From Macrostomum lignano (lineage: Eukaryota): 41,760 nt of DNA. Positions 21,797-40,725 of the stretch are shown piece by piece. How positions within the stretch are numbered: position 1 is the first letter of the stretch; each line of letters begins with the position of its first letter. The notes under the pieces were generated by a model that did not search any database, was not told the DNA's origin, and saw only the letters and a program-made list of their open reading frames with translations. A program made the translations under genes and the position numbers. Location: the NCBI GenBank assembly GCA_002269645.1, contig NIVC01002542.1, forward strand, positions 1 through 41,760, written 5' to 3'.

Positions 21797-22370
21797 GACC
21801 ACAAGCATCCCCCAGATAGCAAGCATCCTCCAGATAGCAAGCATTCTCCCAGATAGCAAGCATTTCCCAGATAGCAAGCATCCCCAAGATAGCAAGCATC
21901 CTCCAGATAGCAAGCATCCCCAGATAGCAAGCATCCCCCAGATAGCAAGCATCCCCCAGATAGCAAACATCCCCCAGATAGCAAGCATCCCCAAGATAGC
22001 AAGCATTCCGCAGATAGCAAGCATCCCCCAGATAGCAAGCATCCCCAAGATAGCAAGCATCCCTCAGATAGCAAGCATACCCCAAGATAGCAAGCATCCC
22101 TCAGATAGCAAGCATACCCCAGATAGCAAGCATCCCCCAGATAGCAAGCATCACTCAGATAGCAAGCATCCCTCAGATAGCAAGCATCCACCAGATAGCA
22201 AGCATCCCCCAGATAGCAAACATCCCCAGATAGCAAGCATCCCCCAGATAGCAAGCATTCCCCAGATAGCAAGCATTCCCCAGATAGCAAGCATCCCCCA
22301 GAAAGCAAGCATCCTCCAAATAGCAAGCATCCCCAAGATAGATAGCATCCCCAAATAGCAACCATCCACC
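21797..22370. repeat. CAGATAGCAAGCATCCCC-family minisatellite (17-19 bp), copy 2
   Basis: Read directly. Confidence 0.92.
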
Positions 22371-22470
22371 AGACAATAAGTAGCTAGAGCGACAATTTCC
22401 TTAGCTTTATAGTGGCTCCTTTAAATTGGCATGGCGCTTTATACCTTTACATTTGAAATTGGATATCTTG

Positions 22471-22575
22471 AATGTTTGACATGGTGGCTCTTTTATGTTT
22501 GACATAGTGGCTCTTCTATGTTTGACATGGTGGCTCTTTTATGTTTGACATAGTGGCTCTTTTATGTTCGACATG
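22471..22575. repeat. 23-bp satellite (TGTTTGACATGGTGGCTCTTTAA), left part, interrupted by the Maverick
   Basis: Continues in register at 37304 once the element and one TSD copy are removed. Confidence 0.92.
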
Positions 22576-22678
22576 AGTAGTATACGTTTTTTTGACACAA
22601 AGCCGATTTCCTTATGGCGAAATACATAGTAAGTACAGGCCCAAAAAAATGGCAGAGTCCGAAATTTCATGTGCACGC
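22576..22678 (+). repeat. Left TIR of the Maverick
   Basis: First 84 bp match the reverse complement of 37220-37303 perfectly; 4 mismatches in the next 19 bp. Confidence 0.95.
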
Positions 22679-23134
22679 AGTCTGAAATTCCATGTGCACG
22701 CAGTCTGAAATTCCAAGTGCACGCTAAATATCTTTTACGCAACGTGATTATTCAGACGAATTGCATATCCACCTGTCCAAAATACAAGTAACCGATTCTA
22801 GCAATGGTGACACAAACACACTTCAAAGGATTCCATTCAAGACAAATTTACTCCAAAGCTATTCACACATTTCAAGTGTTTTTGAAATATTGAAAACTTG
22901 TGAATATTATCACCCTTTTGAAGAAAGATAGTAAATGATCTATTCTTGAGTGCCTATAGAATTTTTGCACCAACTTGAGCAGATGGTTTACAGATACTAT
23001 GTCAACAACTGCGTCAACATGCTTCTTCTTTATACTATATATATATACGAACACACTGACACAGAAAATATTAAATAACTTAAACCAAGTTTACATTATA
23101 CTACTTGTTCAACTATACTTACATCTTAAGTGAA

Positions 23135-23996
23135 ATGAAGCGATCACGTCAGCAGGAATTGGCCGAGCGCTATGTTAAACAAGGTAAGATAATCACCTAC
23201 TCTAGTTCAGTTTTCTTTTTTAGATTGACTGTTCGCTATAGTTTAGTTTCTAGATTGATTGTTAGTTCGGTTTCTGTTTAGACCGATCCTCTGTTTGTTC
23301 AGTCTCTAGATTGATTTTCTGCTAGTTCGGTTTCTGTTTAGACTAATACTCTGCTAGTTCAGAATTTCTAGATTGATTGTCTGCTAGTTCGGTTTCTGTT
23401 TAGACTGATTCTCTGCTAGTTCAGTTTCTATATACATTGTATACATGCACCTATACCAAATTTCCCTCATCTTATCCATTATTATAGCATTCAAGAATGG
23501 TTTCTTCACGCGGCCACCTCCAGATCAGTGCAAACGCATTTGCCACGACACCACCACATCCAATTCTGCTGCAAGAGCATCATATTCTACATCTCTCGCC
23601 AGAGTAACCTCGATTCATGTCGAGAGACAGACAACTGAGCTAGATCGCATTTACACAAGAACTGATGTTATTCAGTCAATTAGGCAGCAATCGAACCCAC
23701 GACCAACTGACCAACTGCAGTATGCACCACCACCACCATCACCAACCAGCTACAATGACCCAACAAAGCAAACTTGCAGTAAGCCTACAAGTACCAAACC
23801 AACGACAGCAACTGAAACACCATCATCATCAATTGCTATTTCTACCCAAGTTCAACCGCTGCTAAACTCGCCAATTATTGTACAGAAGGACATCAAGTCT
23901 GTAAAAGTCTCTCAAATGAGCACAGGCTTCTACCAAGTAGAATTACCAAAGACCTGTAATACAACTCAAGTATTTGAATATTGGGACCTATCTTAA
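23135..23996 (+). CDS. Maverick accessory ORF1, spliced (exons 23135-23183 and 23488-23996), 185 aa, function unknown
   Basis: ATG...CAAG/GTAAGA donor and TTATAG acceptor join in phase 1, giving MKRSRQQELAERYVKQAFKNGFF...; central region is Thr/Ser/Pro-rich. Confidence 0.55.
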
Positions 23997-24252
23997 AAAG
24001 ACATTTTTTCTAACTCTTCATAAAATTTTGCCAGCAATGTGTCCAAGTAATTGCTCTTTTAGTATATATCAAACAAGTCTGTAATCAATAATATAATCTC
24101 TATAAATTCATTATTCTAAAAAATTCTTTCAATTTTATTCGCCATTTATTGAAATTATTTAATTCAATATAAAGTCAATATCTTGTACAGTCATCATTAA
24201 ACAAAAATTATTAATCCATGCAAATAATTTTTTTTTCATACGTTTCTTTAGC

Positions 24253-24935
24253 CATGGTCTGGCTTTTGCCTCAACAGTATGATTTAGCTGTGGTCCAGCT
24301 TTTGCCTCAACAGTATGATTTAGCTGTGGTCCAGCTTTTGCCTCAACAGTTTTTAGCCGTGGTCCGGCTTTTTTGCCTCAGCAGTATGATTTAGCTGTGG
24401 TCTAGCTTAAAACTGCATCAACAGTGATTTAGCTATAGTCCAGGCTTAACTACCTCAACGATGATTTAGCTATAGTCAAGGCTAAACTGTCTCAACAGTA
24501 ATTTTAGCTGTTGTCCAGACTTAACTGCCTCAACAGTGATTTTAGCTGTGGTCCAGGCAACTGTCTCAACAGGGATTTAGCTGTAGCCGATTAGCTTAAC
24601 TGTCCAGTTATTTAGCTGTGAGCCAAGCAGCAGCACCCGTCTCAACAGTGAGAATTAGCTATGGTCAGCTTTACCTCAACTGTGATTTGGCTGCTGTGGT
24701 CTAGCATAACTGACTCAACAGTAATTTTAGCTGTAGTCGTCCAGCTTAACCACCCGTCCAGTTTTATAACCATGGTCCAGCTTAACCACCGTCTCAATGT
24801 ACAGCGATTTAGTCGTGGTCCAGCTTAACCGTCTCAACGTACAGTGATTTAGCCATGGGTCTAGTAGCAATTAACCGTATCAATAGTGATTTAGCCGTGG
24901 TCCAGCTTAACTGTCTCAACACAGTAATTTAGCTT
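24253..24935. repeat. Degenerate ~35-bp tandem repeat inside the Maverick (CTCAACAGTGATTTAGCTGTGGTCCAGCTTAACTG-like)
   Basis: Recurring TTTAGCTGTGGTCCAGCTT and CTCAACAG motifs, about 18 units. Confidence 0.8.
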
Positions 24936-25644
24936 AGTCCAAACAGCATTTGTGTGTCAACTGCACTGACTGCATGCGGTTATAGCAGCGGCAGTCATTA
25001 TAGTCCCAACAAGCTGCGCGTCGCAGCATGATAGTGTAACTCTATATAGCTTCTGCTCAATATAGGACTGCAAAAGCTGAGTTACAACTATACCTTTTTC
25101 TGTTTGAAAAGTAACACTCTATATATAGGTTACTCAAGCAATCTCTTGTCACCGTGCGAGCTAAAAAATTCCAACATGCAAGCAAAACTTTCAATAAATT
25201 AATTTCATAGCACCGCGTGCAGCTTATTTTTACTCTAAAATCCAAGATTGCTAATTTTTCAAGTCGCAAAATATTTTAATTACATTCTACTTGAGAACAA
25301 AACCAATCTAATGAAGCAGCAACCAGCAGTCTTCTTATTAAACGCTTGCCATCGTGTTACTCTTGCAAATTTATAACTAGTGTGCCTAAGATTCATTAAT
25401 TTTATTGTATAAAATATCAACCTACATTTGCGTAAAATTAGACCTAATCATGCAACCCACCCTAGAAACTTATGCCACCTTTGGCACGCAACAATGTCTT
25501 AATCAGCACGCAACAATTAAATTTGTTTACTAGTTCACAAACAGCATGCAAAGCTTGCTATAAATACAAGACCCGAAATGGTCAATTTTTCATGAGCTCA
25601 ATCATTACAGCAAAAGAAATACTATATTCAATTGCTTGTAAGAC

Positions 25645-26843
25645 ATGGCAGCTTGCATCAAGACGGAGTCAATTGTACGCTCCGACTCGAGTCCGATTTT
25701 TTACGTTGGAGAGCAGTCTACAACCACGACTGGTTCGTCCTGCCAGTTTCGATCTATTGCGTGGAAACCATCAATCGAGTGTACAAAATGGTACCCAATT
25801 ATATTGCAAACCAAGGCTCCAATGGAGCTTTTTCGTGGAATCGCAGAAAGGCCAGAGCTCGATCATCCGTCTTGCAGACACGACTCTCGCGACGCAGTAA
25901 GTGTCCAATTTCATCCAGACAGCTGCGATAAGGAACTCTTCCACTCTCTCCGGTGAGCACCATATTAAATTTATACAATTAATTTTAGGAAACTATATTC
26001 ATAATTTATATAATGTTTTGCAGTCAAGTCGAAAAAGGTCTATCGGTCAAGTTGAACGAGATTCAAGATGCTCGACCCTTGGCACGACTAACAAAACCAG
26101 CTCATCAGCATGCTAACGACGTCCTCGAGTTTGTGCCTCAACAATGGCTGGCTATAAAGCCTGCTTACCCTTGTGCCACAATCAGGATCAGCAACGATCA
26201 TCCACACGGGAAGGAGGTGTCCATTTCCGATTTCAAAGGTGTCAGCGGTACCTACCAAATGACAGTGCAAGCAACGAGCTTGTATTGTCCAAAAGGCTGC
26301 CTCGTCTGGCGCATTACATTCGCTGTGCGCTCTCTGACACTCATAGAATCTTCCGACAACATGTTGCAGCGCCTCGACATGTTCAAGGGAGTGCTTGCAC
26401 ACCTACCCGCGACCAAGTCAGCAATTAGAAGCAGGAGTCCGTCCCCAACATCTACCTGTGAGCAAGAAGAAGCAAATGAACAAAGCCTGCAGAATTCAAG
26501 CCAGGTGACACCTGCCAAGTCACCTGCAAAGCGTCGGTCTACCACCACCGTATCGAAGAAGTCGACTACATCGAATGCAGCGCCAGCCTCTATTGAACCG
26601 CCGCCTAAAAAGCAAGTTCGAAAACGCAGCGGTGCAAAACAGCAAAACAATTCTGCCGAAGCTGGTGCAGATGGCACAGACTGGGTGGAGGCTCCACCAG
26701 CAAAGATCTTGGTGAGTACACCTGCCTCTGGAACCAGGGTAGCGTCCAAGGAGACAGCATTTTTAAAGCGTGCTGCTGCGGACGCTACTACAGCTAGCGT
26801 GTCTTCATCGGACGACTCGTACAGCAGCTCTGATGATGAGTAA
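25645..26843 (+). CDS. Maverick accessory ORF2, spliced (exons 25645-25952 and 26024-26843), 375 aa; possible OB-fold ssDNA-binding protein
   Basis: A 71-nt GTGAG...TTTTGCAG intron fuses two ORF-track ORFs in frame (…HSLR-QVEK…). Low-complexity basic linker and acidic C-terminal tail. The SSB call is a pattern-based inference. Confidence 0.6.
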
Positions 26844-27053
26844 CAAAATTTTTGACTAATTTTATCCAAGTTTTAACTAACTTATTCCACTATATTTATC
26901 AAATTTTTGGCTAGGGAAATATTATTTTTTAGGGAAAAGCTCAAAACATTTTTTGCTACTCCTTGTACGCTAACCAGGTTTTGTAATTTAATATTAGAAT
27001 TTACGATAGTATAGTCATGTTTAACTTTTCTTATTATTTATTTTCCGTTTTAG

Positions 27054-27611
27054 CGACTTGTCCTATTAATAGTTACTGCGAGTCTGAAGCTGCACCCGTT
27101 TGAAAAATTTGATTTAAAGCAGACCAAACAGAAGCTACAGACCAGAAACCGGTTTTGCAAACTATTCCTAAGCCGACCAACAATGCTAAAGACAATTTAT
27201 TCAAATGCTAAAATCCAACTTTATCCAGCAGGAAAACTAACTATATATGGCTGTAAATCAAATTCTCAGATAGTCTCAGTTTTACGATTTATCAACGACA
27301 CTATTAATTGTGTAGATTTTGATTCAGTAAAAATTCAGAGCAGTACCTATGTCGGCTTTATTGGTCATCTTTGGCCAAAATTCGGTTTCTCTAGTCTAAA
27401 AAGATATGCAGGCTACTATTCGAATTATCTGGTTGGATACGATGCAGAAAATTTCCCACAAGCAGTTTCTGTTAGATCAGCATCAAAACCAAGGCTTTTT
27501 TGTAACATATTTTTTTCGAAAAAGTTTGTTATTATGGGCGTTCAAAACACTCATGAATTGAATAATATTCTTAACCATGTCAAGGATTTTTTAATCTCTG
27601 TTAATAACTAA
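27054..27611 (+). CDS. TATA-binding-protein (TBP)-fold protein, both repeats; 5' exon not located
   Basis: The frame is open from the TTTTAG acceptor at 27053, 43 codons before the first ATG. Motifs align with TBP: LIVTASL..FDL, KIQLYPAGKLTIYGCKS, VKIQS, YDAENFP, KPRLFCNIFFSKKFVIMG. Confidence 0.75.
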   Translation, partial: RLVLLIVTASLKLHPFEKFDLKQTKQKLQTRNRFCKLFLSRPTMLKTIYSNAKIQLYPAGKLTIYGCKSNSQIVSVLRFINDTINCVDFDSVKIQSSTYVGFIGHLWPKFGFSSLKRYAGYYSNYLVGYDAENFPQAVSVRSASKPRLFCNIFFSKKFVIMGVQNTHELNNILNHVKDFLISVNN

Positions 27612-27834
27612 ACTTAACAAGTAAACAATTGCTGTCAAATCGCAGTTGCGATGCATTCTTTTACAAACATTTTGTCTTTTTTTATTTATTTACCAATTGT
27701 TTTCTCTAATAGTAAACGTGTCAGCTATACCTATAACTAACCAAATCATCATTTTTCTTACAGCCGCAAATGACAAACCGGATCATCTATTAATATTATG
27801 CTCGATACGCTCGTTGTCGAGCTAGGTGCACACA

Positions 27835-28548
27835 ATGCCGCGTGCACAATGCCAAATCTGCAGAAAAAAGTTCAGTAATCAAGCCGAGCTGCATGCTCAC
27901 TCGCATGGTGCTTGTTTTTCACCGCAACGATTACTGACCGGATCGCTGCAAAACCTGATCGAAAACCCACCAGATGGGTGGTCCATCGCTTTGCGCGAGT
28001 CAGCTCATCGTGGTCGGGTAAATTTTGTCGAATTTACTCCCACTCTTGAACAACAAGGCAACAGCTCTGGCGAGTTACTTCCTGGCGAGTTGATTGCGTC
28101 TTTAAGAGAACCAATATTTAAAATATTGGAAAAAATTGGCTCACCCAGTTTATTAATAAGAGTCTGCTTTCACTTGAAAGTGACACTATTTCGACCGAAA
28201 ACAGCAGCAGACGACAACGATGGCTCGAGCAGCGAAGAGATCATTTCGGTCTATTTTAATACCAACATTGCGACAATATCATTTGATGAGACGATTACAA
28301 ACAGTGACATGCTGTTATCTCCCGAGGCCTACAATGACTGGTTCGCACGCGTTATTAATCAGTTGTTAATAAAAATTGACAATTTTCAATCTCGAGGTAG
28401 TAATTGGCAATATAGAGCAATCGAGCAGCTAGACTTGATGCTCTGCGTTTATCGCAAAAGCCATGCAAGCACACTGTCAACAAATACGTCCCACGGTGGT
28501 GTGGGGGCGGGCGGCGGCAGTGGTGGTGGTGGCGGCGGTGGTGGTGGT

Positions 28549-28580
<32 letters not shown>

Positions 28581-28911
28581 GCGCGGGGAGTCCGGTCCAG
28601 TCCGGTCCGGTCCAGTCCGGTCCGGTCTGGTTAAGCAGCAATCGTTTAAAGTTCCAGTCTCAATCGGTCGCAAAGCTGGAGCAGTACTGCTTCTAAAGCC
28701 GCACAGAGCAGTTTAAAGCATCAAGACTATTTAAGAGTCTTACACAAGCGACAACTTGTGTTTTCGCGCATACAGTCCATTCGTTCTCGAAAACAGAAAG
28801 TTTTTTTTGATGCAACAAAGAAAACTTGCACTAAGCTTCTTCGATACGAAGCGATCCTGGACAAGTTCAATTAATTCGCTACCCTTTGGACACTGGCACT
28901 TGGCTAATTAA
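27835..28911 (+). pseudogene. polB: Truncated N-terminal part of a Polinton protein-primed DNA polymerase B (C2H2 finger plus terminal-protein-like region); exonuclease and polymerase domains absent
   Basis: CQICRKKF...HAH finger; IDNFQSRGSNWQYRAIEQLDL matches the GSGW motif of Polinton pPolB N-termini. After two in-frame stops (28714, 28732) the frame continues with the expected DNLCF. No catalytic PolB motifs or long ORF anywhere between the TIRs. Confidence 0.65.
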
Positions 28912-29203
28912 TTAACAATATGCTCTGATCTCTTTTGTTGTACAAAGTAATAGCATGCTATAGAAGACTGTAACCCATCATTAATTTTTTCATTGATCAT
29001 TATTTACAATAAATAAATGATACCGGCATTCGTTTAAATTATAATTTTAGCACTTTTTTGTGTTTAATTATTTGAAAAAGTATATTTTTTATAGTTAGAT
29101 TCTCAAGACTAAGCTTGTGTTTGTAGTAGACGTAAATGTAGTGCTATCGTTCATGTTTCAAGAAAAAAAACTTTTTTTTAAACTTTCAGCTACAAGAATC
29201 GAC

Positions 29204-29686
29204 ATGAATCCCGAGCAGCAGCAGCAACAACAACTAACTGATCGTAAGCTTTTAGTTGAACGTCTATACGATTCGGCAACGATTCCGACCCGAAAAACTG
29301 TCGGGTCGATCGGGTATGATCTTTGCGCTGGCGTCGATGGTACCATTCCGGCCTACGAGTCCCGGAGTGTGCGAACCGGACTCAAAATTCGCTTACCGCC
29401 TGGTACCTATGGCAGGATAGCGGGACGTTCCAGCATGGCTCTGCACAGCTTATTTGTTGGCGGTGGCGTAATCGACCCCGACTATACTGGTGAAATCTGT
29501 ATAGTCTTGTTTAATTACAGTCCGGAAGACTTTGAGTACTATGCCGGGCTCAGTATTGCACAACTGGTTCTGGAGCAGGCCGTGCTTGCTTCAGTCTATG
29601 TGACTGAAGCAGACAATTCGATTCGGATGATTGAGCCGCCGACCAAGCGGCGCGGCTTTGGCGGCTTTGGCAGCACTGGCCAATAA
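29204..29686 (+). CDS. dut: Trimeric dUTPase
   Basis: All five motifs present: GYDL, GRSS, GGVIDPDYTGEI, IAQLV, RRGFGGFGSTG. Likely ATG at 29204. Confidence 0.95.
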   Translation: MNPEQQQQQQLTDRKLLVERLYDSATIPTRKTVGSIGYDLCAGVDGTIPAYESRSVRTGLKIRLPPGTYGRIAGRSSMALHSLFVGGGVIDPDYTGEICIVLFNYSPEDFEYYAGLSIAQLVLEQAVLASVYVTEADNSIRMIEPPTKRRGFGGFGSTGQ

Positions 29687-29777
29687 GTATAATAATAATA
29701 ATAAACTGATTTTTTTCTTTGGTGATTGGTGCACTATGCGAGAGCTTTGTAAATACTATAAGCAATTTTAAAAATTT

Positions 29778-30221
29778 ATGCCTAAAATATATGTTGTAAA
29801 AATGTCTCCAGCGAAAGATCGAGGTTTTAAAAAGAAAAAGAAGAGCATTCGTAAAAAGAAGAAATCTATTAGAAAGATTAATAAAAAGCAACAAGGTTAT
29901 GGTGTCGTAAATTGGTTAATTAATCATTTACCATTTGAAGCACATTTACCCGGCGGATATCAGTTTTGTGGTCCAGGTACGCAACTGCAAGCTAGGCTAG
30001 CAAAAGGACAACGAGGAATTAATCGGCTTGACAATTTGTGCATGCTTCACGACGTGGCCTATGATAAAAATTCTGACGTGCAAGAGAGGTTAAAAGCTGA
30101 TAAGCTATTAGAATCTGGTGCACGAGAGATTGCCCACGATCCGTCTACTGGTTGGAAAGAAAAACTAGCTGCGAAGTTGGTTACCAAGGTTATGCAAGTT
30201 AAGCAACGCTTTGGTGCTTGA
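29778..30221 (+). CDS. Parvovirus-type phospholipase A2 domain protein (adintovirus PLA2X-like) with a basic N-terminus
   Basis: YQFCGPG Ca-loop and NRLDNLCMLHDVAYD catalytic HD; Lys-rich leader ending in QQGYG. Confidence 0.85.
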   Translation: MPKIYVVKMSPAKDRGFKKKKKSIRKKKKSIRKINKKQQGYGVVNWLINHLPFEAHLPGGYQFCGPGTQLQARLAKGQRGINRLDNLCMLHDVAYDKNSDVQERLKADKLLESGAREIAHDPSTGWKEKLAAKLVTKVMQVKQRFGA

Positions 30222-30223
30222 AA

Positions 30224-30913
30224 ATGCAGCAGCCATACAATATGCAACTAGCTCACGATTCTACATTTATTATTGCTGGACCTTCAAACTCGGGTAAAAC
30301 TGAATGGACGTTGCGTTTGTTGACTGAACGAAAAGAATTATTTGATAAAAAACCGTGCCGTCTTGTTTGGTGCCATGGATCAAGTTTGAAACCAGACGAT
30401 CAACAACGAATTAGAACATGCTGGCAAAAAAGCGGTCTTGACCCTATTGTTTTTGTACCCGAATTCACACCACAGATGATTAATCGTTTTTTACCACACG
30501 ATTTGGTTGTTGTTGACGACTTGCAAAGCGAGATTGCTAAGTTGCCAGAATTTACTAGTATGTTTACAAAGCATGCGCATCATATCCCTTTGACTTGTCT
30601 GTACCTTTGTCAAGGTCTTTTTAACAAGTCTGATCCAGAAGCACGCATGCGAAGTTTATCAGCTAGTTATATTTGTCTAACTCGTAGTGTGCGCGATCGA
30701 ACCACAGTTGAACATCTCGGTCGACAAATGTATCCGCGTAATAGTAGGTTTCTAGTGAATGTGTATGAAGACGCAACAAATAACAAACCTTTTTCATATT
30801 TATTCATTGACCTGCGGCAAGTGACACCAGATTTTTTACGATTGAGAACAGGAATATTTTCTGGTGATGAACAAGTTGTCTATACTCGTGAATGTGATGC
30901 AAAGTTTGTGTAA
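30224..30913 (+). CDS. A32/FtsK-like genome-packaging ATPase
   Basis: Walker A GPSNSGKT, Walker B LVVVDD, HH...Q sensor region, YLFIDL...LRLRTGIF C-terminus. Confidence 0.92.
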   Translation: MQQPYNMQLAHDSTFIIAGPSNSGKTEWTLRLLTERKELFDKKPCRLVWCHGSSLKPDDQQRIRTCWQKSGLDPIVFVPEFTPQMINRFLPHDLVVVDDLQSEIAKLPEFTSMFTKHAHHIPLTCLYLCQGLFNKSDPEARMRSLSASYICLTRSVRDRTTVEHLGRQMYPRNSRFLVNVYEDATNNKPFSYLFIDLRQVTPDFLRLRTGIFSGDEQVVYTRECDAKFV

Positions 30914-30970
30914 TATTATTATAAGCAAATTATAAACTGTTGTCAATATTAGTTTGTGTTTTATTTCAAA

Positions 30971-31960
30971 ATGAGTTTTTACGTTTTTTTGCCGTCAAAC
31001 GATATCAGTTACGAAACCAACTCGCCTAATGAATTTCGAGTGCGACTAACTGAACCAATAAATTTATTGAACGGATTCTTCGAGGTTGCACTAGTTGAAT
31101 TACTGTGCCATGGAGCAATTACGACGCCAAATGCTCATCGTGAGCGTCGATTTGAAGTTCCATATTTTGCGGACATTGACTCAATAATACGATTAAAGAA
31201 AAACTATTGGGGTCGTGTTTGGGCAGAGGCAGACTTGGATGCTTACGTTTCCTGGCAACCGTCTGGTACAGATGAAAAATTTGCCTGGCTTTTACGAAAT
31301 TCAGGCGAAAAAACTATTGGATTAGAACTACCAGTTACATTTATGGACGCTTTCAAATTTGACTCTTGGAAGAAACTTTCTGGACTTGTCTCGGAAAAAT
31401 TATCAAAACCTGCCGCTGGTAGTGTACAACCACCGGATGGTTCATACTTGGATTTGATAAAAAGTCTCGACAATACTCTAGCGCTAGTACCTGAGAACTA
31501 TTATGTTTTTTATTGTGTTCTATCGCCTGGTGAAGCTATACGACTTGTTTCGCATGGAGACTATCTTCGAAAAACGGAAGGAGAAGTGTACATCAAAGTA
31601 CACCAATATTGGTTGAGAAATCGTGTTTGGCGCATTAACAAAACCTACTTGGATGCTGTGCTACCTTCTCCGATGCCTAGTAAAACGGTTTACATGTACT
31701 GTTACACAGATATAATCGAGTATCAAGCAGTGGGAAGTACATCAGTACCGTTGCTTCGAGTTGTGGAACTCCAACAAAAGAAAAACGGAGAACTTATACG
31801 CGATAGCAGTGCATTGCAAACACCCTACTACTTGAAAACAAATCGACAACAAATTCACGAGATTTCGATTCGACTATCGGACCAGCGCGGAAAACCGTTT
31901 AATTTTGATCCGGGAGCACACGTTGTTGTCGTACTGCATTTTAAACATAGGTCGGACTAA
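30971..31960 (+). CDS. Minor capsid protein (penton, single jelly-roll)
   Basis: MSFYVFLPSN start; C-terminal YTDII..Q.VG....PLLRVV and IRLSDQRG.PF...VVVLHF pattern of Polinton mCP. Confidence 0.85.
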   Translation: MSFYVFLPSNDISYETNSPNEFRVRLTEPINLLNGFFEVALVELLCHGAITTPNAHRERRFEVPYFADIDSIIRLKKNYWGRVWAEADLDAYVSWQPSGTDEKFAWLLRNSGEKTIGLELPVTFMDAFKFDSWKKLSGLVSEKLSKPAAGSVQPPDGSYLDLIKSLDNTLALVPENYYVFYCVLSPGEAIRLVSHGDYLRKTEGEVYIKVHQYWLRNRVWRINKTYLDAVLPSPMPSKTVYMYCYTDIIEYQAVGSTSVPLLRVVELQQKKNGELIRDSSALQTPYYLKTNRQQIHEISIRLSDQRGKPFNFDPGAHVVVVLHFKHRSD

Positions 31961-32016
31961 TTTATAAGCAAAGATTAATTGTGTAATAGAAAATTTTGTG
32001 AATTTGTTTTGTAAGA

Positions 32017-32445
32017 ATGAGCGAACTAACAGAAAAAGGAAAACAAAATGCTCGCTCATTGTGTCAGTGTGCTTTTTTACTACAAATTGTTTATCGGCTA
32101 AAGCATCCAAAGCAGAGAAAAAGTTTTTTACAAACACTTTCAGAGTCGGAGATACGATGTCTAGTAGACTTTCTGTTTAATATTATTAGTGGACGTATTA
32201 AAATTAGTAACTGTAACAAAAGACGACTTGAGAAGCATCGCAGATATATACGCCAGCTTTTGGAACAGAAGACTCCAATTACTGCAAAAAGGAAAATACT
32301 TGTCCAACACGGAGGATTTTTACCTTTTTTGGCTCCAATTATTGCCGCTCTACCTGCTATAAGCACTGCGCTTGGGATAACGTCTGGAGTAGTTGGTACC
32401 GCCGCGGGAGCAGCGAATTTAATACGATCAATTCAACGAAAGTAG
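32017..32445 (+). CDS. Conserved Maverick virion precursor-like protein ending in a GG-FLPFLAPII hydrophobic/amphipathic peptide
   Basis: KRKILVQHGGFLPFLAPIIAAL motif; lies within the morphogenesis cluster. Confidence 0.75.
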   Translation: MSELTEKGKQNARSLCQCAFLLQIVYRLKHPKQRKSFLQTLSESEIRCLVDFLFNIISGRIKISNCNKRRLEKHRRYIRQLLEQKTPITAKRKILVQHGGFLPFLAPIIAALPAISTALGITSGVVGTAAGAANLIRSIQRK

Positions 32446-32455
32446 TAGGAATATA

Positions 32456-33145
32456 ATGCGAACTAACGAGAGTAGTAGTTTTCAACGAATGTATCTAGTA
32501 CCTGAATCTGTGTATCAATCTGCATGTCAAGGTGCAGAGCAAGGATCGTCACCAACTGCTGAGACACCTCGAAAAACTGAAGTTTTAGACGCACCGCAAG
32601 ATGCTCTGGCAAAAAATATGGTGGAAATGAGAGACCAAATGGATAACTTGGACAAGGAAATGGAAAAGGAGCCAAATTACACAGCTCAATTGAAACGAAG
32701 CAGATTGGAAGACAAACTTTTAAAATTGCGCAAAGTCTATCGCACTGGAGACGAGGACAATCTGTCACTTGTTCGCAAAGGGACTACTGTAAGAAGTTCA
32801 TATGCCAGCGAATCAAGGGAAATTCCTAAAGTTTTTTTACCACGTTTCGAAGCTCTCGCTCAAAACCTATTTTCGGACATGGACAAGAATGCAGAACCAA
32901 TGCTGGCTAATTTGACTGATGCCGAGATACAAGATCTCATGGAATATGTTGTTCGAGACAGACCGCTTAAGCGACACGAGACTCAACCGCCTAGTGGACT
33001 AAAAACATTTTTAGACTTTCTTCGAAAACGTGGAATCGCAGCAAACCAAATCGGGCGTCATGTACGAAACGAGCTAATGTCTGCTCCAAAAACTGTTGCA
33101 AAGGAGGATCTTAGTCTGTTTGAAAATTATCAAACACTGAATTAA
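32456..33145 (+). CDS. Maverick ORF of unknown function, 229 aa
   Basis: Clean ATG ORF tightly packed between core genes. The RMYLVP start, coiled-coil LDKEM segment and PPSGLKTFLDFL motif resemble a recurrent Polinton ORF (from memory, not searched). Confidence 0.7.
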   Translation: MRTNESSSFQRMYLVPESVYQSACQGAEQGSSPTAETPRKTEVLDAPQDALAKNMVEMRDQMDNLDKEMEKEPNYTAQLKRSRLEDKLLKLRKVYRTGDEDNLSLVRKGTTVRSSYASESREIPKVFLPRFEALAQNLFSDMDKNAEPMLANLTDAEIQDLMEYVVRDRPLKRHETQPPSGLKTFLDFLRKRGIAANQIGRHVRNELMSAPKTVAKEDLSLFENYQTLN

Positions 33146-33257
33146 GTTGTTTTAAAATTACAGATTACGTTTTAACAAAATTGATTCGAGCACTATAAGC
33201 TTTTTAAAAAGGTTAATTTTTTGTTTATGAAAAATATATAGTTTAATAAGACAAACC

Positions 33258-33446
33258 ATGTCATCTATCTTCCAAAAACTTTTGATTCGTCTCTGTGAGT
33301 TTTTTTGCATAAAATCTGAATGTGTGCCGTTTCTGGGAAAGGAGCACAACGAGGATACTGACGGAGATTCGATCGAGGCTTCGTTCTTTTGTTGCAACTG
33401 TCAAACGACTAGCATCAATCTAACTGATGATGAAGCGAGTGCGTAA
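33258..33446 (+). CDS. Possible small Cys-rich ORF, 62 aa
   Basis: ACCATGT start; fills the gap before the integrase and overlaps its start, like other junctions in the cluster. Confidence 0.35.
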   Translation: MSSIFQKLLIRLCEFFCIKSECVPFLGKEHNEDTDGDSIEASFFCCNCQTTSINLTDDEASA

Positions 33447-34587
33447 GGAAATTGAAGAATTTTTGACGGATGCTTTTTTTAACTTGAACAGGCCTACTTC
33501 ATTTAGTGGTAACAAGACTATACTTGTTCGTGAAGTACGTAAAAAGTTTCCACAGATTACGAACAAAGTTGCAAAGCGCGAAGTTGATAATTGGGTGCGA
33601 TCAACAAATGAGCATCATTTATTTCGAAAAACACGACGAAACTTTCCAACTCCAAAAATTAGTGTGCCACCAGTTGCAAAGTTTCAGTTTCAAATCGATT
33701 TGGCAGATTTACCTCAATACAAGACGGAAAATCGAGGTTATCGTTACATACTTGTTCTTATCGACTGTTTTACTAGAGTTGTACGACTAAGACCATTGCG
33801 TACAAAGAAGCCTTCAGAAGTTAGTCAAGTATTACTAGAGATTTTTCGAAGTGGTTTTAAGCCTGTTTATTTACAAGGTGATGCTGGTATGGAGTTTCTC
33901 GGAAGAGCTACACGTCAAATGCTGAAACAGGAAGGAGTTCGATTTTTTGTTAGCCAAAGCAATTACAAGGCAAGCATGGCTGAACGATTTATCCGCTCGT
34001 TAAAGGAACGTCTATTACGATACTTTCGAGCAAAAAATTTACCTCGATGGTTTGACATTTTACCGCAATTGGAAGATAATTTCAACTCTAGTCCTCATCG
34101 ATCCTTGAGTGGAGAAACACCAAAACGGGTAGAGACAGACCCGCATTTACAAGGAATTTTGTGGGACAAAATGTTTGCGAAGTCGTACACTAAAAAGAAT
34201 GAGAATAAATTTAAAGTTGGTGATTGGGTTAGAATTACACGACGTCGAGGAACATTTGAAAAAGGATACACTACGACTTGGAGTAATTCAAAATATCGCA
34301 TTCATCGTGTACACTTGACAGACCCGCCAATGTACGAATTAGTGGACCCTGAAGATGGATTTGAAGTGCTGAAAGGAAGGTTTAACCAAGCGGAACTAAT
34401 GTTGGTAAACGAGACAGATGAAACACCTAATGAAATTGAAAAAGTTATTGAAACTGATCGAGCGAAAAATGGAAGTCGTCTGTATCTAGTAAAATGGAAA
34501 GGTATGCCAATCTCAAGAAGTCAGTGGTTAAACGAAAATGATCTTGACGCAAAGACTGCTAAACTATTTTCTAAAGTGTATAAGTAA
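33427..34587 (+). CDS. int: Retroviral-like (rve, DDE) integrase with C-terminal chromodomain
   Basis: FQIDLADL (D), LQGDAGMEF (D), MAERFIRSLK (E); FKVGDWVRI...FEKGY; chromodomain IEKVI...YLVKWKG...QW. Confidence 0.96.
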   Translation: MMKRVRKEIEEFLTDAFFNLNRPTSFSGNKTILVREVRKKFPQITNKVAKREVDNWVRSTNEHHLFRKTRRNFPTPKISVPPVAKFQFQIDLADLPQYKTENRGYRYILVLIDCFTRVVRLRPLRTKKPSEVSQVLLEIFRSGFKPVYLQGDAGMEFLGRATRQMLKQEGVRFFVSQSNYKASMAERFIRSLKERLLRYFRAKNLPRWFDILPQLEDNFNSSPHRSLSGETPKRVETDPHLQGILWDKMFAKSYTKKNENKFKVGDWVRITRRRGTFEKGYTTTWSNSKYRIHRVHLTDPPMYELVDPEDGFEVLKGRFNQAELMLVNETDETPNEIEKVIETDRAKNGSRLYLVKWKGMPISRSQWLNENDLDAKTAKLFSKVYK

Positions 34588-34595
34588 CACATGAA

Positions 34596-35087
34596 TTGGG
34601 ATTGCATGACGAAGAGAAGACTGTTGAAATGGATCCTATTTTTGCTTTTTATTCTGGTCCGAATAGATCTGCTGAAGGTGGAGGTGGATATGGCATTCCT
34701 GTTTACGAAGGTTACGGTTTTTTGTCAAATTTGGCGGACAGATTGGTGTATCCTGTACTACGCAACGCAAAGAAAGATTTCTTGGATCGTGGTCTGGAGT
34801 ATTTGAAAAGTGCGACAGCAAAAATTGGTATGGGTCGGAAGCGTCACTTGGACACAGAATCGAGCGAAGAGATGTTTAATACAACTGCAGTTTCGAGACC
34901 AAAGCGAAGGAAAAGAACCAGTGGAGTGGCTATAAGCTTAGGAAAGAAGAAACGGCAAAAGAAACGACGAACAAGACAGTGTGGAAAGGGACGCGTGAAC
35001 AAAAGAAAACGCAAGAAGACCGGTGGTATAGGAAAACGTCGAACTGCTACTGCAAGCAAGAAACTTTTTAGTCTGTTTGAAAAGTAG
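34596..35087 (+). CDS. Basic core-like protein (adenovirus pVII-like role inferred)
   Basis: Arg/Lys-rich C-terminal half; GGGG/GYG/GxG motifs; lies immediately upstream of MCP. Confidence 0.7.
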   Translation: MGLHDEEKTVEMDPIFAFYSGPNRSAEGGGGYGIPVYEGYGFLSNLADRLVYPVLRNAKKDFLDRGLEYLKSATAKIGMGRKRHLDTESSEEMFNTTAVSRPKRRKRTSGVAISLGKKKRQKKRRTRQCGKGRVNKRKRKKTGGIGKRRTATASKKLFSLFEK

Positions 35088-35088
35088 C

Positions 35089-36411
35089 ATGAACCATTTG
35101 CTTGGACCTGATATTGCTGCTCTTAAAAGTGAATTGTCGCTATTTGATCAAAGTCCTGTTCAGTTTAGTGTTTTGGATAATCGATATACTAACATTCAAC
35201 CGCAACATGGTATTACAAAAGGATCACCTATCGAATTTGAAGTTGTGCCTGCAGGCGATTTGTATTTGGATCTACAAGAAACTGTGCTCACGGTATGCTT
35301 CAGCGTTAGTGATAGTGAAGGTGAACCTATAGATGCAACGAAAAATTTTGTTTGTTTGAATAATTTGGTTATTGGAACATTGTTTGAGGACGTTCAATTT
35401 ACTATTGGCGATACTGTAGTTGAAGGTGGTAGTTTTATGTATCCATACAAGGCTATGCTTCTTACATTACTGGAATATGGACATACAGCTCAGAAGGCTG
35501 GTTTACTGCCGTGGGGGTTTTACAAGGATACAGCTGGTAAAATGAATGCAACAAGTGAAAACGATGGACGAACAAAGAGGCAGGCGCTCATTGCTAACAA
35601 TAGGCGGTGCACTGTATCGGGGCCGTTATTCTTGGATTTGTTTCGTCAGCCTCGGTATCTACTATCAAAGACACCACTACGGATCAAGCTCATACCGGCA
35701 AAAAGTAAATTTGTCCTGAGCGGGTCAACATTAGAAGCTGGTGCGGTTTTAAAAGACTATGAGATCAAGTTTTTGCGTGCAGAACTACGATTGCGGTTTG
35801 TTCAACCCTCGCCGAGTGTTATCAGTGCACATGCTCATGGACTTAAAAGTCACAATGCATTATATCCGCACCGAAGTCTAAGCCTTGGTACGTTTACTAT
35901 ACCCCGAGGATCGTCTAGCCATACGCATGAAAATTTGTTTCCTAGTGGGGTACCACGGCTTTTATTGATGGCAATCGTAAGCAACAAGGCATTCAATGGA
36001 AGCATGGACACAAATCCGTTCAACTTTGAGCATGCAAATGTGAGCAGCATTGGTGTGTTTGTGAATGGAGACTCGGTACCATCGCGTCCGCTGCAGACAA
36101 ACTTTGGAGATGATTGTGTGACAGAGTATAATTTTTTGCTACAACAGCTTGGAATCTATCTACAGGGACGAGATATTGGATTTAATATGCTGGATTACGC
36201 CAATGGTTACTCAATTTTTGCATTCAGTCTTGGAAGTGAACCTGGTGTCGGACGGGGAGTGCAACTGTATAAGGAAGGAAATGTAAAACTAGAGTTACGC
36301 TTCAATGCTGCAACTAGTACCGTGTACAACGTCATATTTGGAGGTATATTTGACAAGCAACTGCAACTGACTGAACTTCGCGACATTGTTCCTGGCACAG
36401 TATGGAAGTAA
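35089..36411 (+). CDS. Major capsid protein (double jelly-roll, hexon-like), 440 aa
   Basis: SELSLFD, PIEF...YLDL, YPYKA, LDLFRQPRYL, AFNG....NPFNF and GY.IFAFSL patterns typical of Polinton MCP. Confidence 0.92.
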   Translation: MNHLLGPDIAALKSELSLFDQSPVQFSVLDNRYTNIQPQHGITKGSPIEFEVVPAGDLYLDLQETVLTVCFSVSDSEGEPIDATKNFVCLNNLVIGTLFEDVQFTIGDTVVEGGSFMYPYKAMLLTLLEYGHTAQKAGLLPWGFYKDTAGKMNATSENDGRTKRQALIANNRRCTVSGPLFLDLFRQPRYLLSKTPLRIKLIPAKSKFVLSGSTLEAGAVLKDYEIKFLRAELRLRFVQPSPSVISAHAHGLKSHNALYPHRSLSLGTFTIPRGSSSHTHENLFPSGVPRLLLMAIVSNKAFNGSMDTNPFNFEHANVSSIGVFVNGDSVPSRPLQTNFGDDCVTEYNFLLQQLGIYLQGRDIGFNMLDYANGYSIFAFSLGSEPGVGRGVQLYKEGNVKLELRFNAATSTVYNVIFGGIFDKQLQLTELRDIVPGTVWK

Positions 36412-36965
36412 TTGATTCTATCCTAGATCGTGGTGTAACAGATCGCTTCCTTCGCAATGTTGTATCGAAATTGTGCGCACATTTTTTAAATGTTGTATTT
36501 CTTGGTGTTTTTCCTCAAAACTTTGTTGGTGGACTTAGACGCTTACCTTTAGACGGTAAAGACTATTTTTTTATCGTTAATACTGACGTCTCCAACCTGC
36601 CCGGAAAACATTGGGTATGCGTTTGGGTTTATGGTCATCGAGCAGGTCGCGGTAGCAAACGACTTGGTGAATATTTTGATTCTCTTGGTCTAGTACCATT
36701 GCCAAGAATAGCAAAATGGCTAGGAAAAGAATGTGGAAATTCGAAAAATTGGTGTTATAGTCGCTTTGCTATCCAAGACCCACAGAGTGGAAGTTGTGGA
36801 TTTTGGGTAATTTTTTATATTTTTCATAAGTTGACTACCAGAGGAAACCTAGAGTGTTTTATTCGAAGCGTTTTTAAACGGAATATAATTCGCACTGGTT
36901 CGTTTCGATACTTGTATGCTAAATTACGCAATTTTGTTTTACGAGTGCTGCCTCAATATTTGTAA
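36402..36965 (+). CDS. Adenain-like (Ulp1 family) cysteine maturation protease
   Basis: NTD....PGKHW (His), EYFDSLG (Asp), IQDPQSGSCG (Gln/Cys); start overlaps the MCP stop. Confidence 0.95.
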   Translation: MEVIDSILDRGVTDRFLRNVVSKLCAHFLNVVFLGVFPQNFVGGLRRLPLDGKDYFFIVNTDVSNLPGKHWVCVWVYGHRAGRGSKRLGEYFDSLGLVPLPRIAKWLGKECGNSKNWCYSRFAIQDPQSGSCGFWVIFYIFHKLTTRGNLECFIRSVFKRNIIRTGSFRYLYAKLRNFVLRVLPQYL

Positions 36966-37200
36966 ACTCGCTAATTTGTGCGTCAAATTGTGTTTGTATC
37001 TAGTTGAAATATACAATACTGCTTGAAAAGAAGAATTTAAATGCGTTAAGTTATACGCGAAATAAGCTTTGTGTCAAATTGAATTTTGGTTGGGCTTGTA
37101 ATTAGCTGCATTCATTGCGGATAGAATTTAGGTGGATAGACAGGTGTTTGCGTAAAAGTGATTCAGCTAATTGGTTAATTCATTGCGTAAAAGCTAGTTT

Positions 37201-37303
37201 GCGTGCACGGCAAATTTCAGACTCTGCCATTTTTTTGGGCCTGTACTTACTATGTATTTCGCCATAAGGAAATCGGCTTTGTGTCAAAAAAACGTATACT
37301 ACT
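37201..37303 (-). repeat. Right TIR of the Maverick
   Basis: Reverse complement of 22576-22678; followed by TSD GACATG. Confidence 0.95.
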
Positions 37304-40300
37304 GACATGGTGGCTCTTCTATGTTTGACATGGTGGCTTTTTTAGGTTTGACATGGTGGCTCTTTTATGTTTGACATGTTGACTTTTTTATGTTCGACAC
37401 GGTGGCTCTTTTAGGTTTGAACCGGTGGCTCTTTAATGTTTGACATGGTGGCTCTTTAATGTTCGACATGGTGGCTCTTTTATGTTCGACATGGTGGCTC
37501 TTTAATGTTTGACATGGTGGCCCTTTAATGGTTAACATGGCGGCTCTTTAATTTTCGAAATGGTGGCTCCTTAATTTTCGAAATGGTGGCTGTTTTATGT
37601 TTGACATGGTGGCTCTTTAATGTTCGACATGGTGGCTCTTTAATGTTTGACATGGTGTCTGTTTTATGTTTGATATGGTGGCTCTTTAATGTTCGACATG
37701 GTGGCTCTTTAATGTTTGACATGGTAACTCTTTTATGTTTGATATGGTGGCTCTTTAATGTTCGACATGGTGGCTCTTTAATGTTCGACATGGTGGCTCT
37801 TTAATGTTCGACATGGTGGCTCTTTAATTTTTAACATGGTGACTCTTTTATGTTCGACATGGTGGCTCTTTTATGTTTGACATAGTGGCTCTTCTATGTT
37901 TGACATGGTGGCTCTTTAATGTTTGACATGGTGGCTCTATTATGTTTGACATGGTGGCTCTTCTATGTTTGACATGGTGGCTTTTTTAGGTTTGACATGG
38001 TGGCTCTTTTATGTTTGACATGTTGGCTTTTTAATGTTCGACATGGTGGCTTTTTAATGTTCGACATGGTGGCTCCTTTAGGTTTGAAATGGTGGCTCTT
38101 TAATATTTGACAAGGTGGCTCTTTAATGTTCGACATGGTGGCTCTTTTAGGTTTGAACCGGTGGCTCTTTAATGTTTGACATGGTGTCTGTTTTATGTTT
38201 GACATGGTGGCTCTTTAATGTTCGACATGGTGGCTCTTTAATGTTCGACATGGTGGCTCTTTAATTTTTAACATGGTGACTCTTTTATGTTCGACATGGT
38301 GGCTCCTTAAGGTTTGAAATATTGGCTCTTTAATGTTTAACATGGTGGCTTTTCTATGTTCGACATGGTGGCTTTTCTATGTTCGACATGGTGGCTCTTG
38401 TATGTTCGACATGGTGGCTCTTTTAATGGTCGACATGGTGGCTCTTTAATGTTCTTCATGTTGGCTCTTTTATGTTTGACATGGTGGCTTTTTTATGTTT
38501 GACATGGTGGCTCTTTTATGTTCTACATAGCTGCTCTTTTATGTTCGACATTGTGGCTCTTGTATGTTCGACAGGGTCGCTCTTTTAGGTTTGAAATGGT
38601 GGCTCTTTAATATTTGACAAGGTGGCCTTTAATGTTTAACATGGCGGCTCTTAAATTTTCGAAATGGTGGCTGTTTTATATTTGACATGGTGGCTCTTTA
38701 ATGTTCGACATGGTGGCTCTTTAATGTTCTTAATGGTGTCTGTTTTATGTTTGACATGGTTGCTCTTTTATGTTCGACATGGTGGCTCTTTAATTTTTAA
38801 CATGGTAACTCTTTTATGTTTGATATGGTGGCTCTTTTATGTTCGACATGGTGGCTCTTGTATGTTCGACATGGTGGCTTCTTTAGGTTTGAAATGGTGG
38901 CTCTTTAATATTTGACAAGGTGGCTCTTTAATGTTCGACATGGTGGCTCTTTTAGGTTTGAAATGGTGGCTCTTTAATATTTGACAAGGTGGCTCTTTAA
39001 TGTTTGACATGGTGGCTCTTTAATGTTCGACATGGTGGCTCTTTAATGTTTGACATGGTAACTCTTTTATGTTTGATATGGTGGCTCTTTTATGTTCGAC
39101 ATGGTGGCTCTTTAATGTTTGACATGGTGGCTCTTTAATGTTTGACATGGTAACTCTTTTATGTTTGATATGGTGGCTCTTTAATGTTCGACATGGTGGC
39201 TCTTGTATGTTCGACATGGTGGCTTCTTTAGGTTTGAAATGGTGGCTCTTTAATATTTGACAAGGTGGCTCTTTAATGTTTGACATGGTGGCTCTTTAAT
39301 GTTTGACATGGTGGCTCTTTTAGGTTTGAAATGGTGGCTTTTAATGTTTGACAATGTGGCTCTTTAATGTTTGACATGGTGGCTTTTTAATGTTCGACAT
39401 GGTGGCTCTTTTAGGTTTGAACCGGTGGCTCTTTAATGTTTGACATGGTGGCTCTTTAATGTTTGACATGGTGTCTGTTTTATGTTTGACATGGTGGCTC
39501 TTTAATGTTCGACATGGTGGCTCTTTTAGGTTTGAACGGTGGCTCTTTAATGTTTGACATGGTGGCTCTTTAATGTTTGAAATGGTGGCTCTTTAATGTT
39601 CGACATGGTGGCTCTTTAATTTTTAACATGGTGACTCTTTTATGTTCGACATGGTGGCTCCTTTAGGTTTGAAATATTGGCTCTTTAATGTTTAACATGG
39701 TGGCTTTTCTATGTTCGACATGGTGGCTTTTCTATGTTCGACATGGTGGCTCTTGTATGTTCGACATGGTGGCTCTTTTATGTTCGACATGGTGGCTCTT
39801 GTATGTTCGACAGGGTCGCTCTTTTAGGTTTGAAATGGTGGCTCTTTAATATTTGACAAGGTGGCCCTTTAATGTTTAACATAGCGGCTCTTAAATTTTT
39901 GAAATGGTGGCTCCTTAATTTTCGAAATGGTGGCTGTTTTATATTTGACATGGTGGCTCTTTAATGTTCTTAATGGTGTCTGTTTTATGTTTGACATGGT
40001 GGCTCTTTAATTTTTAACATGGTGGCTCTTTTAGGTTTGAAACGGTGGCTCTTTAATGTTTGACATGGTGACTCTTTAATGTTTGACATGGTGGCTTTTC
40101 TATGTTCGACATGGTGGCTCTTGTATGTTCGACATGGTGGCTTCTTTAGGTTTGAAATGGTGGCTCTTTAATATTTGACAAGGTGGCTCTTTAATGTTCG
40201 ACATGGTGGCTCTTTAATGTTTGACATGGTGGCTCTTTAATGTTCGACATGGTGGCTCTTTAATGTTTGACATGGTAACTCTTTTATGTTTAATATGGTG

Positions 40301-40725
40301 GCTCTTTTATGTTCGACATGGTGGCTCTTTAATGTTTGACATGGTGGCTATTTAATGTTTGACATGGTAACTATTTTAGGTTTGAAATGGTGGGTCTTTA
40401 ATGCTTGACAATGTGGCTCTTTAATGTTTGACATGGTAACTCTTTTATGTTTGATATGGTGGCTCTTTTATGTTCGACATGGTGGCTCTTTAATTTTCGA
40501 CATGGTGGCTCCTTTAGGTTTGAAATGGTGGCTCTTTAATGTTTGACATGGTGGCTCTTCTATGTTCGACATGGTGGCTCTTCTATGTTCGACATGGTGG
40601 CTCTTTAATTTTTAACATGGTAACTCTTTTATGTTCGATATGGTGGCTCTTTTATGTTCGACATGGTGGTTCTTTAATGTTCGACATGGTGGCTCCTTTA
40701 GGTTTGACATGGTGGCTCTTCTATT
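37304..40725. repeat. 23-bp satellite array (TGTTTGACATGGTGGCTCTTTAA), about 148 copies
   Basis: Read directly. The 23-aa periodicity (3 units) explains the MSNIKEPPC ORFs. Confidence 0.97.

Follow-up and report, generated by a model that had tools for sequence, protein, structure and literature searches.

A start-less TBP-fold exon and a candidate late-promoter word in a Maverick element of Macrostomum lignano

Structure and gene content of the element

The stretch of DNA analysed here (the window; 41,760 nt of Macrostomum lignano contig NIVC01002542.1) carries a Maverick, or Polinton, element. Its terminal inverted repeats (22576-22679 and 37200-37303) measure 104 nt and are 96% complementary; the termini read AGTAGT and are flanked by a 6-bp target duplication, GACATG, at 22570-22575 and 37304-37309. 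All recognised genes lie on the + strand, in the order U, TBP-like, pPolB N-terminal part, dUTPase, PLA2-like, ATPase, minor capsid, pX-like, a frame without assignment, integrase-chromodomain, core, major capsid and protease (Table 1). The inverted ends, 6-bp duplication, integrase, pPolB, ATPase, capsids, protease, pX-like and PLA2-like genes are shared with Mavericks, Polintons and adintoviruses (PMC8502044). Matches above the Pfam cut-offs were obtained for dUTPase, PLA2-like, Adeno_PX, rve and chromo, the integrase pairing an rve match of 33.7 bits (cut-off 32.6) with a chromodomain; the protease reaches only E 0.043. Pfam returned no match over cut-off for the packaging ATPase, major and minor capsid or protease genes, all of which are homologous to genes of Polinton contigs. 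The names ATPase, capsid and core are assigned presumptively, from known Maverick gene content together with this homology.

Table 1. Positions in the window of the Maverick element, its genes and its candidate signals
Feature	Position	Strand	Remarks
Maverick/Polinton element	22576..37303	+	14,728 bp; inserted in 23-bp satellite; polymerase-deleted family
TATAAAT, canonical	25559..25565	+	~85 nt before gene U ATG
Gene U exon 1	25645..25952	+	ATG to phase-2 donor; conserved in sister families
Gene U intron 1	25953..26023	+	71 nt, GT..AG
Gene U exon 2	26024..26843	+	probable OB-fold ssDNA-binding domain, basic linker, acidic tail; with exon 1, 375 aa
Splice donor GTGAGT in gene U	26712..26717	+	phase 0, K-x-L|V-S; 342 nt before TBP acceptor
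Pyrimidine tract and AG acceptor	27030..27053	+	phase 0 to TBP frame; intact in 20/20 copies checked
TBP-like exon	27054..27611	+	185 codons, start codon absent; P42, Y57, F134, F153; stirrup D130 and E132
pPolB N-terminal part	27764..28716	+	AG acceptor 27762-27763; ATG 27835; catalytic part deleted
dUTPase, PLA2-like, packaging ATPase, minor capsid, pX-like, ORF 32423, integrase-chromodomain, core, major capsid, protease	29099..36965	+
TATAAGCAA	29757..29765	+	before PLA2-like gene
TATAAGCAA	30920..30928	+	51 nt before ATG of probable minor capsid gene
TATAAGCAA	31963..31971	+	54 nt before pX-like core gene
TATAAGTAA	34579..34587	+	50 nt before basic core gene, which precedes major capsid and protease genes

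The pPolB of the window aligns only to residues 3-275 of a sister pPolB, its C-terminal part being unmatched, and the catalytic part is likewise absent from 20 of 20 identical copies checked. With only the N-terminal part of pPolB retained, the window element is therefore non-autonomous. The loss of most of the polymerase in the window copy had no place in the original prediction. In a near-identical subfamily, a polymerase frame of 1,414-1,415 codons is present in two of the three copies fetched, the third being frameshifted, and the 185-codon TBP frame is kept in all three; the polymerase of a sister family matches PF03175. Across the genome, 83 of 97 candidates match the TBP-like protein, 22 of them identically. 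The order U-TBP-pPolB is kept in 7/7 diverged regions fetched, which represent five further families with 39-46% identity in the TBP-like protein and the same gene position in all six. A kinase frame, assigned by a Pfam dNK run on two of the five, follows the TBP-like gene in these five other families and is absent from that of the window. At L029:3640-5046 (-) and L031:3672-5090 (-) the TBP-like frame is prolonged by a domain of the deoxynucleoside kinases (Pfam dNK, 85 bits); this fusion occurs in one family, and elsewhere the kinase is a separate overlapping frame.

Several further features of these elements were noted. Between L021-L022 and L023-L024 (G000 C2529, C272), dS is 1.3-1.9 in U and TBP and only 0.05-0.14 in ATPase and PLA2-like, a disparity which suggests that early and structural modules are exchanged between Maverick families. 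The 23-bp satellite array extends on both sides of the window element (22300-22575 and 37304-40700), and at least one other copy (L054) lies near the same satellite types, so satellites may be preferred or tolerated as Maverick targets. Between the left end and gene U, degenerate tandem repeats of ~36-40 bp, variable between copies, occupy 24250-24930 and could form a replication or enhancer region. At 23172-23996, an ATG frame of four codons, which has a strong donor (23184), precedes a 195-codon frame with a hydrophobic start, a Pro/Thr-rich body and no Pfam match. Outside the Maverick, an inverted repeat pair of 531 nt at 11016-12341 (94% complementary, 264 nt apart) is probably a small non-autonomous transposon.

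Fold, residues and relatives of the TBP-like exon

The original prediction had extended a 142-aa ORF by 43 codons to a splice acceptor and read the product as a TBP fold within a virus-like element of ~15 kb. The 185-codon frame is indeed open behind a pyrimidine tract and TAG, with its first Met at residue 44, and the TBP-like motifs quoted at that time are present in the translation. The exon scores 31 bits against the Pfam TBP family PF00352 (gathering cut-off 22.9; E 2.2e-7), which is matched by 13 of 14 aligned rows, two of these being host proteins. Profile-profile comparison with cellular TBPs gives a probability of 98.9 and E 1.3e-17, and each of the seven sequence matches among solved structures (E up to 10) contains TBP. 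A model predicted from seven Maverick rows only (pLDDT 89.4, pTM 0.61) has TBPs as its five best structural matches among 48,161 chains (Z 10.4-12.1, next 8.2), with 166-167 residues aligned over 1-185. At an rmsd of 7-9 Å and a TM of about 0.45, from so shallow an alignment, these matches support the two lobes and leave the angle between them unsupported. The top Atlas and viral fold matches are nucleocytovirus TBP-like proteins. Between the two closest sister families dN is 0.219 and dS 1.294 (dN/dS 0.17), the other between-family pairs being at or near saturation. The 14.7-kb Maverick almost certainly encodes a real TBP-fold gene, as had been proposed, and one under purifying selection.

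Residues were compared over 11 clade A, 5 clade B, 41 metagenome and 24 cellular rows, in columns that carry what we take to be yeast TBP numbering, partly matched to a table in PMC12529657. All four intercalating aromatic residues (F, Y, F, F) had been thought to be kept: Y57, F134 and F153 are, and the first Phe is replaced by P42. This F99 column holds Pro in 10 of 11 clade A rows (the other is a gap), in 5/5 clade B rows, in 41/41 metagenome rows, which were chosen partly on the Pro motif, and in none of the 24 cellular rows, 22 of which have Phe. The F116 column is Tyr in clades A and B, and the F190 and F207 columns are Phe in every clade A, clade B and metagenome row. The predicted loss of the central Asn residues holds, with L4 and S96 in their place, and Asn is lost from the N69 and N159 columns in clade A. 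Changes on the DNA face fall in the N69, F99, N159, V122, T124 and T215 columns; F134, P135, R141, F153 and Y57 on the same face are invariant or nearly so.

The acidic pair of the C-lobe stirrup, D130 and E132, is invariant in 7/7 rows of this genome; the E188 column is kept in 11/11 clade A, 5/5 clade B and 40/41 metagenome rows, and the E186 column (D130) is N or S in 4 of the 11 clade A rows. TBP and TFIIB form a well-known pair, whose contact requires DNA. When a TFIIB carried by the element was sought with PF00382, 15 matches turned up, distributed over 7 contigs, with no multicopy family among them; the host TFIIB gene is split by introns. The basic helix-2 patch, a surface used by host regulators (PMC7221094), is lost in clade A. 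The stirrup acids bind TFIIB, and large-virus TBPs have diverged at both, often alongside a viral TFIIB (PMC7221094). Nucleocytovirus TBP-like proteins resemble the Maverick protein in being virus-encoded and divergent, with a changed regulatory surface on the N-lobe, but their TFIIB contacts have diverged and they often bring their own TFIIB (PMC7221094), whereas the Maverick keeps the acids and no TFIIB of its own was found. The Maverick genome also differs in measuring 15-20 kb, and no RNA polymerase match was seen in it. Cellular TBP and its paralogues (PF00352; host TBP L040, TRF2/TLF-like L046) share the two-lobe fold, the order of its elements, the C-lobe Phe pair with its following Pro and the acidic TFIIB stirrup. 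They differ at ~21% identity, by the Pro and Tyr in the F99 and F116 columns, the lost central Asn residues and helix-2 patch, and by the organisation of the Maverick gene, a mobile start-less exon in many copies.

The TBP family model has at least 150 matches in the genome (150 of 330 candidates having been scored). Among them are six host loci, three TBP and three that we take to be TRF2-like; the rest include many clade B Maverick copies. All 11 contigs sampled from these matches have pPolB nearby, nine of them with ATPase and capsid as well. Searched by profile, 1.84 billion proteins yielded 146 hits, of which 4 are close, and many of the weaker ones share a G-R-P-x-M motif. Scanning JGI metagenomes with 27 weaker relatives yielded eight loci, of which three are clear Polintons (integrase, capsid, ATPase and protease, with pPolB in one) and three more have a protease or capsid gene adjoining the TBP-like gene; in these metagenome loci the TBP-like gene has its own ATG. 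Word-index protein searches found no relatives of the window protein or of longer fused forms, and searches of IMG/VR (two alignments) and of phage records gave none of the TBP-like protein.

In a tree of 51 selected rows, clade A groups with the metagenome Polinton rows (97/93; bootstrap unsettled, long branches), and host TRF2 is set apart. Joining clade A, metagenome and clade B rows in one group receives 71/92, so that a single origin is neither shown nor rejected. This phylogeny, which had been proposed as a check, bears on whether the exon is merely a recent, decaying retrocopy of host TBP. The host gene, intronless over its core, would suit such an origin, but its identity to the TBP-like protein is 21%, forcing clade A together with it is rejected (p-AU 9e-5), and the Polinton grouping and a dN/dS of 0.17 rule a retrocopy out, to a negligible residual probability.

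The original prediction placed TBP outside the standard Maverick gene set. The novelty is smaller than that, given the Polinton TBP genes in metagenomes and a 2021 figure legend that labels a TBP in a related element (PMC8502044). Beyond this label, section 3.4 and a term search of the text and one supplement of that paper gave no mention of the family, its residues, a promoter word or splicing. Earlier descriptions of a Maverick TBP may exist, for example in repeat databases. What the present locus adds is the residue signature, a promoter-word count held out from the window, and a start-less exon with two splice routes.

Clade B Mavericks differ in layout. In L052, L055, L057, L062 and L065 the TBP-like gene has its own ATG and overlaps an upstream frame, presumably exonuclease-like by its motif and without a Pfam hit. 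The clade B protein is nearly invariant in its N-lobe and variable in its C-lobe. Some clade B Mavericks carry a PC4 domain gene. In metagenome Polintons (L092:3088-3798, L097:8810-9568), a frame on the same strand extends over the beginning of the TBP-like gene; judged by eye it resembles PC4, and it has no Pfam match.

Gene U and the start of the TBP-like exon

Gene U lies directly upstream of the TBP-like exon. Its intron 1 is spliced out, as a 71-nt skip, in runs X2, X6 and X7 of three studies (3/4 runs), and both intron ends are present in 19 of 19 genomic copies spanning it, so the gene U unit is transcribed. In two of the runs the variant letters are those of the polymerase-bearing subfamily. 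A skip of 184 nt with non-canonical ends in run X1 (26294-26479) is probably a deleted genomic copy. Neither Pfam nor PDB sequence searches gave a match to U, nor did a fold search with exon 2 only, for which the model was poor (half-domain pLDDT 44.7). Weak look-alikes in the Atlas (scores 0.87-0.91) are NCLDV hypothetical proteins, in clusters where DUF2738, DUF5871 and Pox_I3 account for 10%, 15% and 12% of members. [quoted passage not shown]

The manner in which the TBP-like exon acquires a start codon is suggested by two conserved splice sites. A YAG followed by an Arg codon occupies the same phase-0 position before the exon in 6/6 families, and an in-frame ATG lies upstream in one of the six only. 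Within gene U, a donor of the form GT(A/G)AG(C/T) sits at the same codon and phase in 6/6 families, 259-619 nt upstream of the acceptor; its Val and Ser codons are always GTR and AGY, and the gap from the U stop to the acceptor is 124-490 nt. Other copies, to which the original prediction had looked for an intact 5′ exon, thus offer a kept acceptor and a kept donor in U, and an in-frame ATG in a single family. The expected junction ending at 27053 fared less well: contigs of four runs guessed to be RNA (X1, X2, X6 and X7), which drop rare forms and cannot show RNA ends, show neither a joint nor a loose end at 27053/27054, and at 26711 they likewise lack a joint (0/4). Unspliced contigs cross the donor in X1, X2 and X7 and the acceptor in X1, X2 and X6. 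From the conservation of both sites, the exon is probably spliced at 27053, to a leader, to the U donor or to both.

The likelier route, at roughly even odds, is trans-splicing: the spliced leader of the host would be joined to the exon, and the AUG at the end of this leader would open a protein of 186 aa. Host TBP is identical in sequence to the protein of M. lignano, a species whose spliced leader terminates in ATG and serves to resolve operons (PMC8629364, PMC12582326). By a count made by eye among 34 free-standing relatives, 7 have their start Met 4 residues before the Asn column, where a Met supplied at the TBP acceptor would also fall, and 6 more have it 5 or 6 residues before. In two families the polymerase begins with ATG-CC; the other four show TTCCAG|CC, in three of these exactly at the position of the ATG and in the fourth nearly so, one of the three having an in-frame ATG further up. 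The host trans-acceptor motif does not separate cis from trans sites: the TBP acceptor ends in TAG, and the cis acceptors of intron 1 also fit. Before the dUTPase ATG, in four families (window 29170-29205 and sister loci), acceptor-like TTTCAG or TTCCAG occurs within a few bases, as an operon-like early unit would need. A cis leader was also considered, namely the strong donor after 23183 behind the four-codon ATG frame, and was set aside, no counterpart being found in the sister stretches.

A second route, plausible at somewhat lower odds, would use donor 26712 to produce a U-TBP fusion, 517 aa long by arithmetic. An upstream donor favours cis- over trans-splicing, and GT[G/A]AG is the top donor motif of the host (PMC8629364). 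If this cis-spliced fusion were the main product, it would act at replicating element DNA, with the SSB-like part on displaced single strands and the TBP part on AT-rich DNA or engaging TFIIB there, thereby coupling late transcription to replication or serving replication or packaging itself. The phase-0 donor at the same codon in 6/6 families, written in the preferred motif of the host, agrees with such a fusion, and the 42-50-codon tail behind the donor is conserved (dN 0.33, dS 2.6, 44 codons), which is what two real isoforms would require. Against its being the main product are the absence of the junction from the contigs of four runs, the failure of a word-index search, a weak one, to find a long relative, and the weak Atlas lead on which U as an SSB depends. 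The metagenome Polinton relatives, moreover, have their own ATG and no such fusion, and the donor may instead control 3′-end formation. As the principal product the fusion is therefore unlikely.

Alternatively, the exon could remain mostly unspliced and yield only the 142-aa product from Met44, or nothing, as a passenger in a young polymerase-deleted family. The acceptor is indeed covered by unspliced contigs only, and among the 22 identical copies too little time has passed for selection to be visible. But codons 1-43 are open and partly invariant in 7/7 rows (R1, A9, L28, K36, P42), they form the first strand and helix of the predicted model, and the acceptor is conserved in 6/6 families, all of which make a passenger very improbable.

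A comparable arrangement is known in adenoviruses, where one early E2 promoter serves the ssDNA-binding protein and the polymerase through alternative acceptors, with a start codon from an upstream exon. The Maverick would share an early unit of SSB and polymerase with an upstream-supplied start codon, but adenoviruses are not known to encode a TBP and use cis leaders, whereas the Maverick leader may be the trans-spliced one of the host.

The word TATAAGYAA and the proposed role

The word TATAAGYAA, first spotted by eye, has four sites in the window element, all in sense orientation and 21-54 nt before the ATG of a structural gene. When the whole window is shuffled, 2 of 100 shuffles reach 5 word matches. 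With the word fixed on the window and counted in the five other families, 14 sense and 0 antisense sites were found against 0.72 expected. It stands 46-54 nt before the homologous ATG of the minor capsid gene in 5/5 families holding that gene. It is absent before the ATGs of the ATPase, integrase, major capsid and protease genes, which abut upstream genes, and was not found before clade B genes. In the metagenome Polinton L092, the core TAWGYAW precedes 5 of 13 ORFs (0.67 expected); the signal is weak in L097 (2 of 14; 0.66 expected). The canonical TATAAAT upstream of gene U is a candidate early promoter, which host TBP would read.

In TBP-DNA structures, the 5′ TA step lies with the C-lobe and the 3′ end with the N-lobe. 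A remodelled N-lobe would thus face the altered 3′ half of the word, which is a fit and not a test. The placement of the C-lobe proline agrees with a C-lobe at the 5′ step (PMC12529657), and the general TBP-TATA picture is given in PMC10005294. What links word and protein is their co-occurrence in related elements only.

These features suggest, with a probability of about 0.6, that the TBP-like protein mimics TBP at late genes, working with TFIIB and Pol II taken from the host and switching on capsid and core genes through TATAAGYAA. In such a scheme, the early unit (SSB-like U, TBP, dNK in sister families, pPolB and dUTPase) would be transcribed from the canonical TATA by host factors, and the TBP-like exon would gain its start by splicing at 27053. 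Its product would then bind TATAAGYAA ~50 nt before the capsid and core genes. Its C-lobe, with F134, P135 and F153 kept, would grip the 5′ half of the word, TATA, and the altered 3′ half, AGCAA, would be read by the remodelled N-lobe (P42, Y57, L4). The bound protein would recruit host TFIIB and RNA polymerase II, constituting a late-gene switch. The original prediction offered two roles. Redirection of host Pol II to element promoters gains indirect support, at the level of sequence, from the TATA word, the kept TFIIB acids and the lack of a TFIIB detected in the element. Competition with host TBP at ordinary TATA boxes is less likely, since one intercalating Phe, both central Asn residues and several residues of the sheet are changed.

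Another reading makes the protein a decoy: it would keep the stirrup, bind DNA poorly and sequester TFIIB or TBP partners and damp host transcription, TATAAGYAA being read by host TBP or TRF2. Many residues of the DNA face are changed and the stirrup is the best-kept surface, as such a decoy would have it, and the word is a few bases off a canonical TATA box. Yet the DNA face keeps F134, P135, R141, F153 and Y57 with little or no variation, the loss of the basic helix-2 patch in clade A fits evasion more than baiting, and a small integrated element would presumably gain little from a general shut-off. This reading is accordingly rated improbable, a little below the fusion as main product.

The proposed late-gene mimic has a functional parallel in herpesvirus ORF24 (beta/gamma), which acts on a non-canonical TATA word at late promoters with host Pol II; ORF24 of KSHV reads TATT late promoters (PMC12529657). 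ORF24 is large, however, keeps four Phe, lacks the TFIIB acids and binds Pol II directly and requires five viral partners (PMC12529657). The Maverick protein is a bare core for which no partner was identified. More speculatively, animal Polintons may possess their own family of TBP mimics and a private late programme, run from a box of TATAAGYAA type with the help of host TFIIB and Pol II. RNA processing would gate this switch in the present flatworm lineage: start codons would have been surrendered by the TBP exon and, in four families, by the polymerase as well, both relying on the AUG of the host trans-spliced leader, and an optional cis-splice would fuse TBP to the SSB, tying late transcription to replication. 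Taken as a whole, this extended picture is doubtful.

A one-protein TBP mimic with a matching word would make the ordering of early and capsid genes in Mavericks testable by gel shift, reporter and RNAi in a laboratory flatworm. If the proposal holds, the TBP-mimic system would be much smaller than its counterparts in herpesviruses and giant viruses, and its protein would be a TBP whose specificity has been altered in nature; the element, DNA-virus-like, might also depend on host leader trans-splicing for its start codons. In clade B, a TAAGAA-like word may precede the genes.
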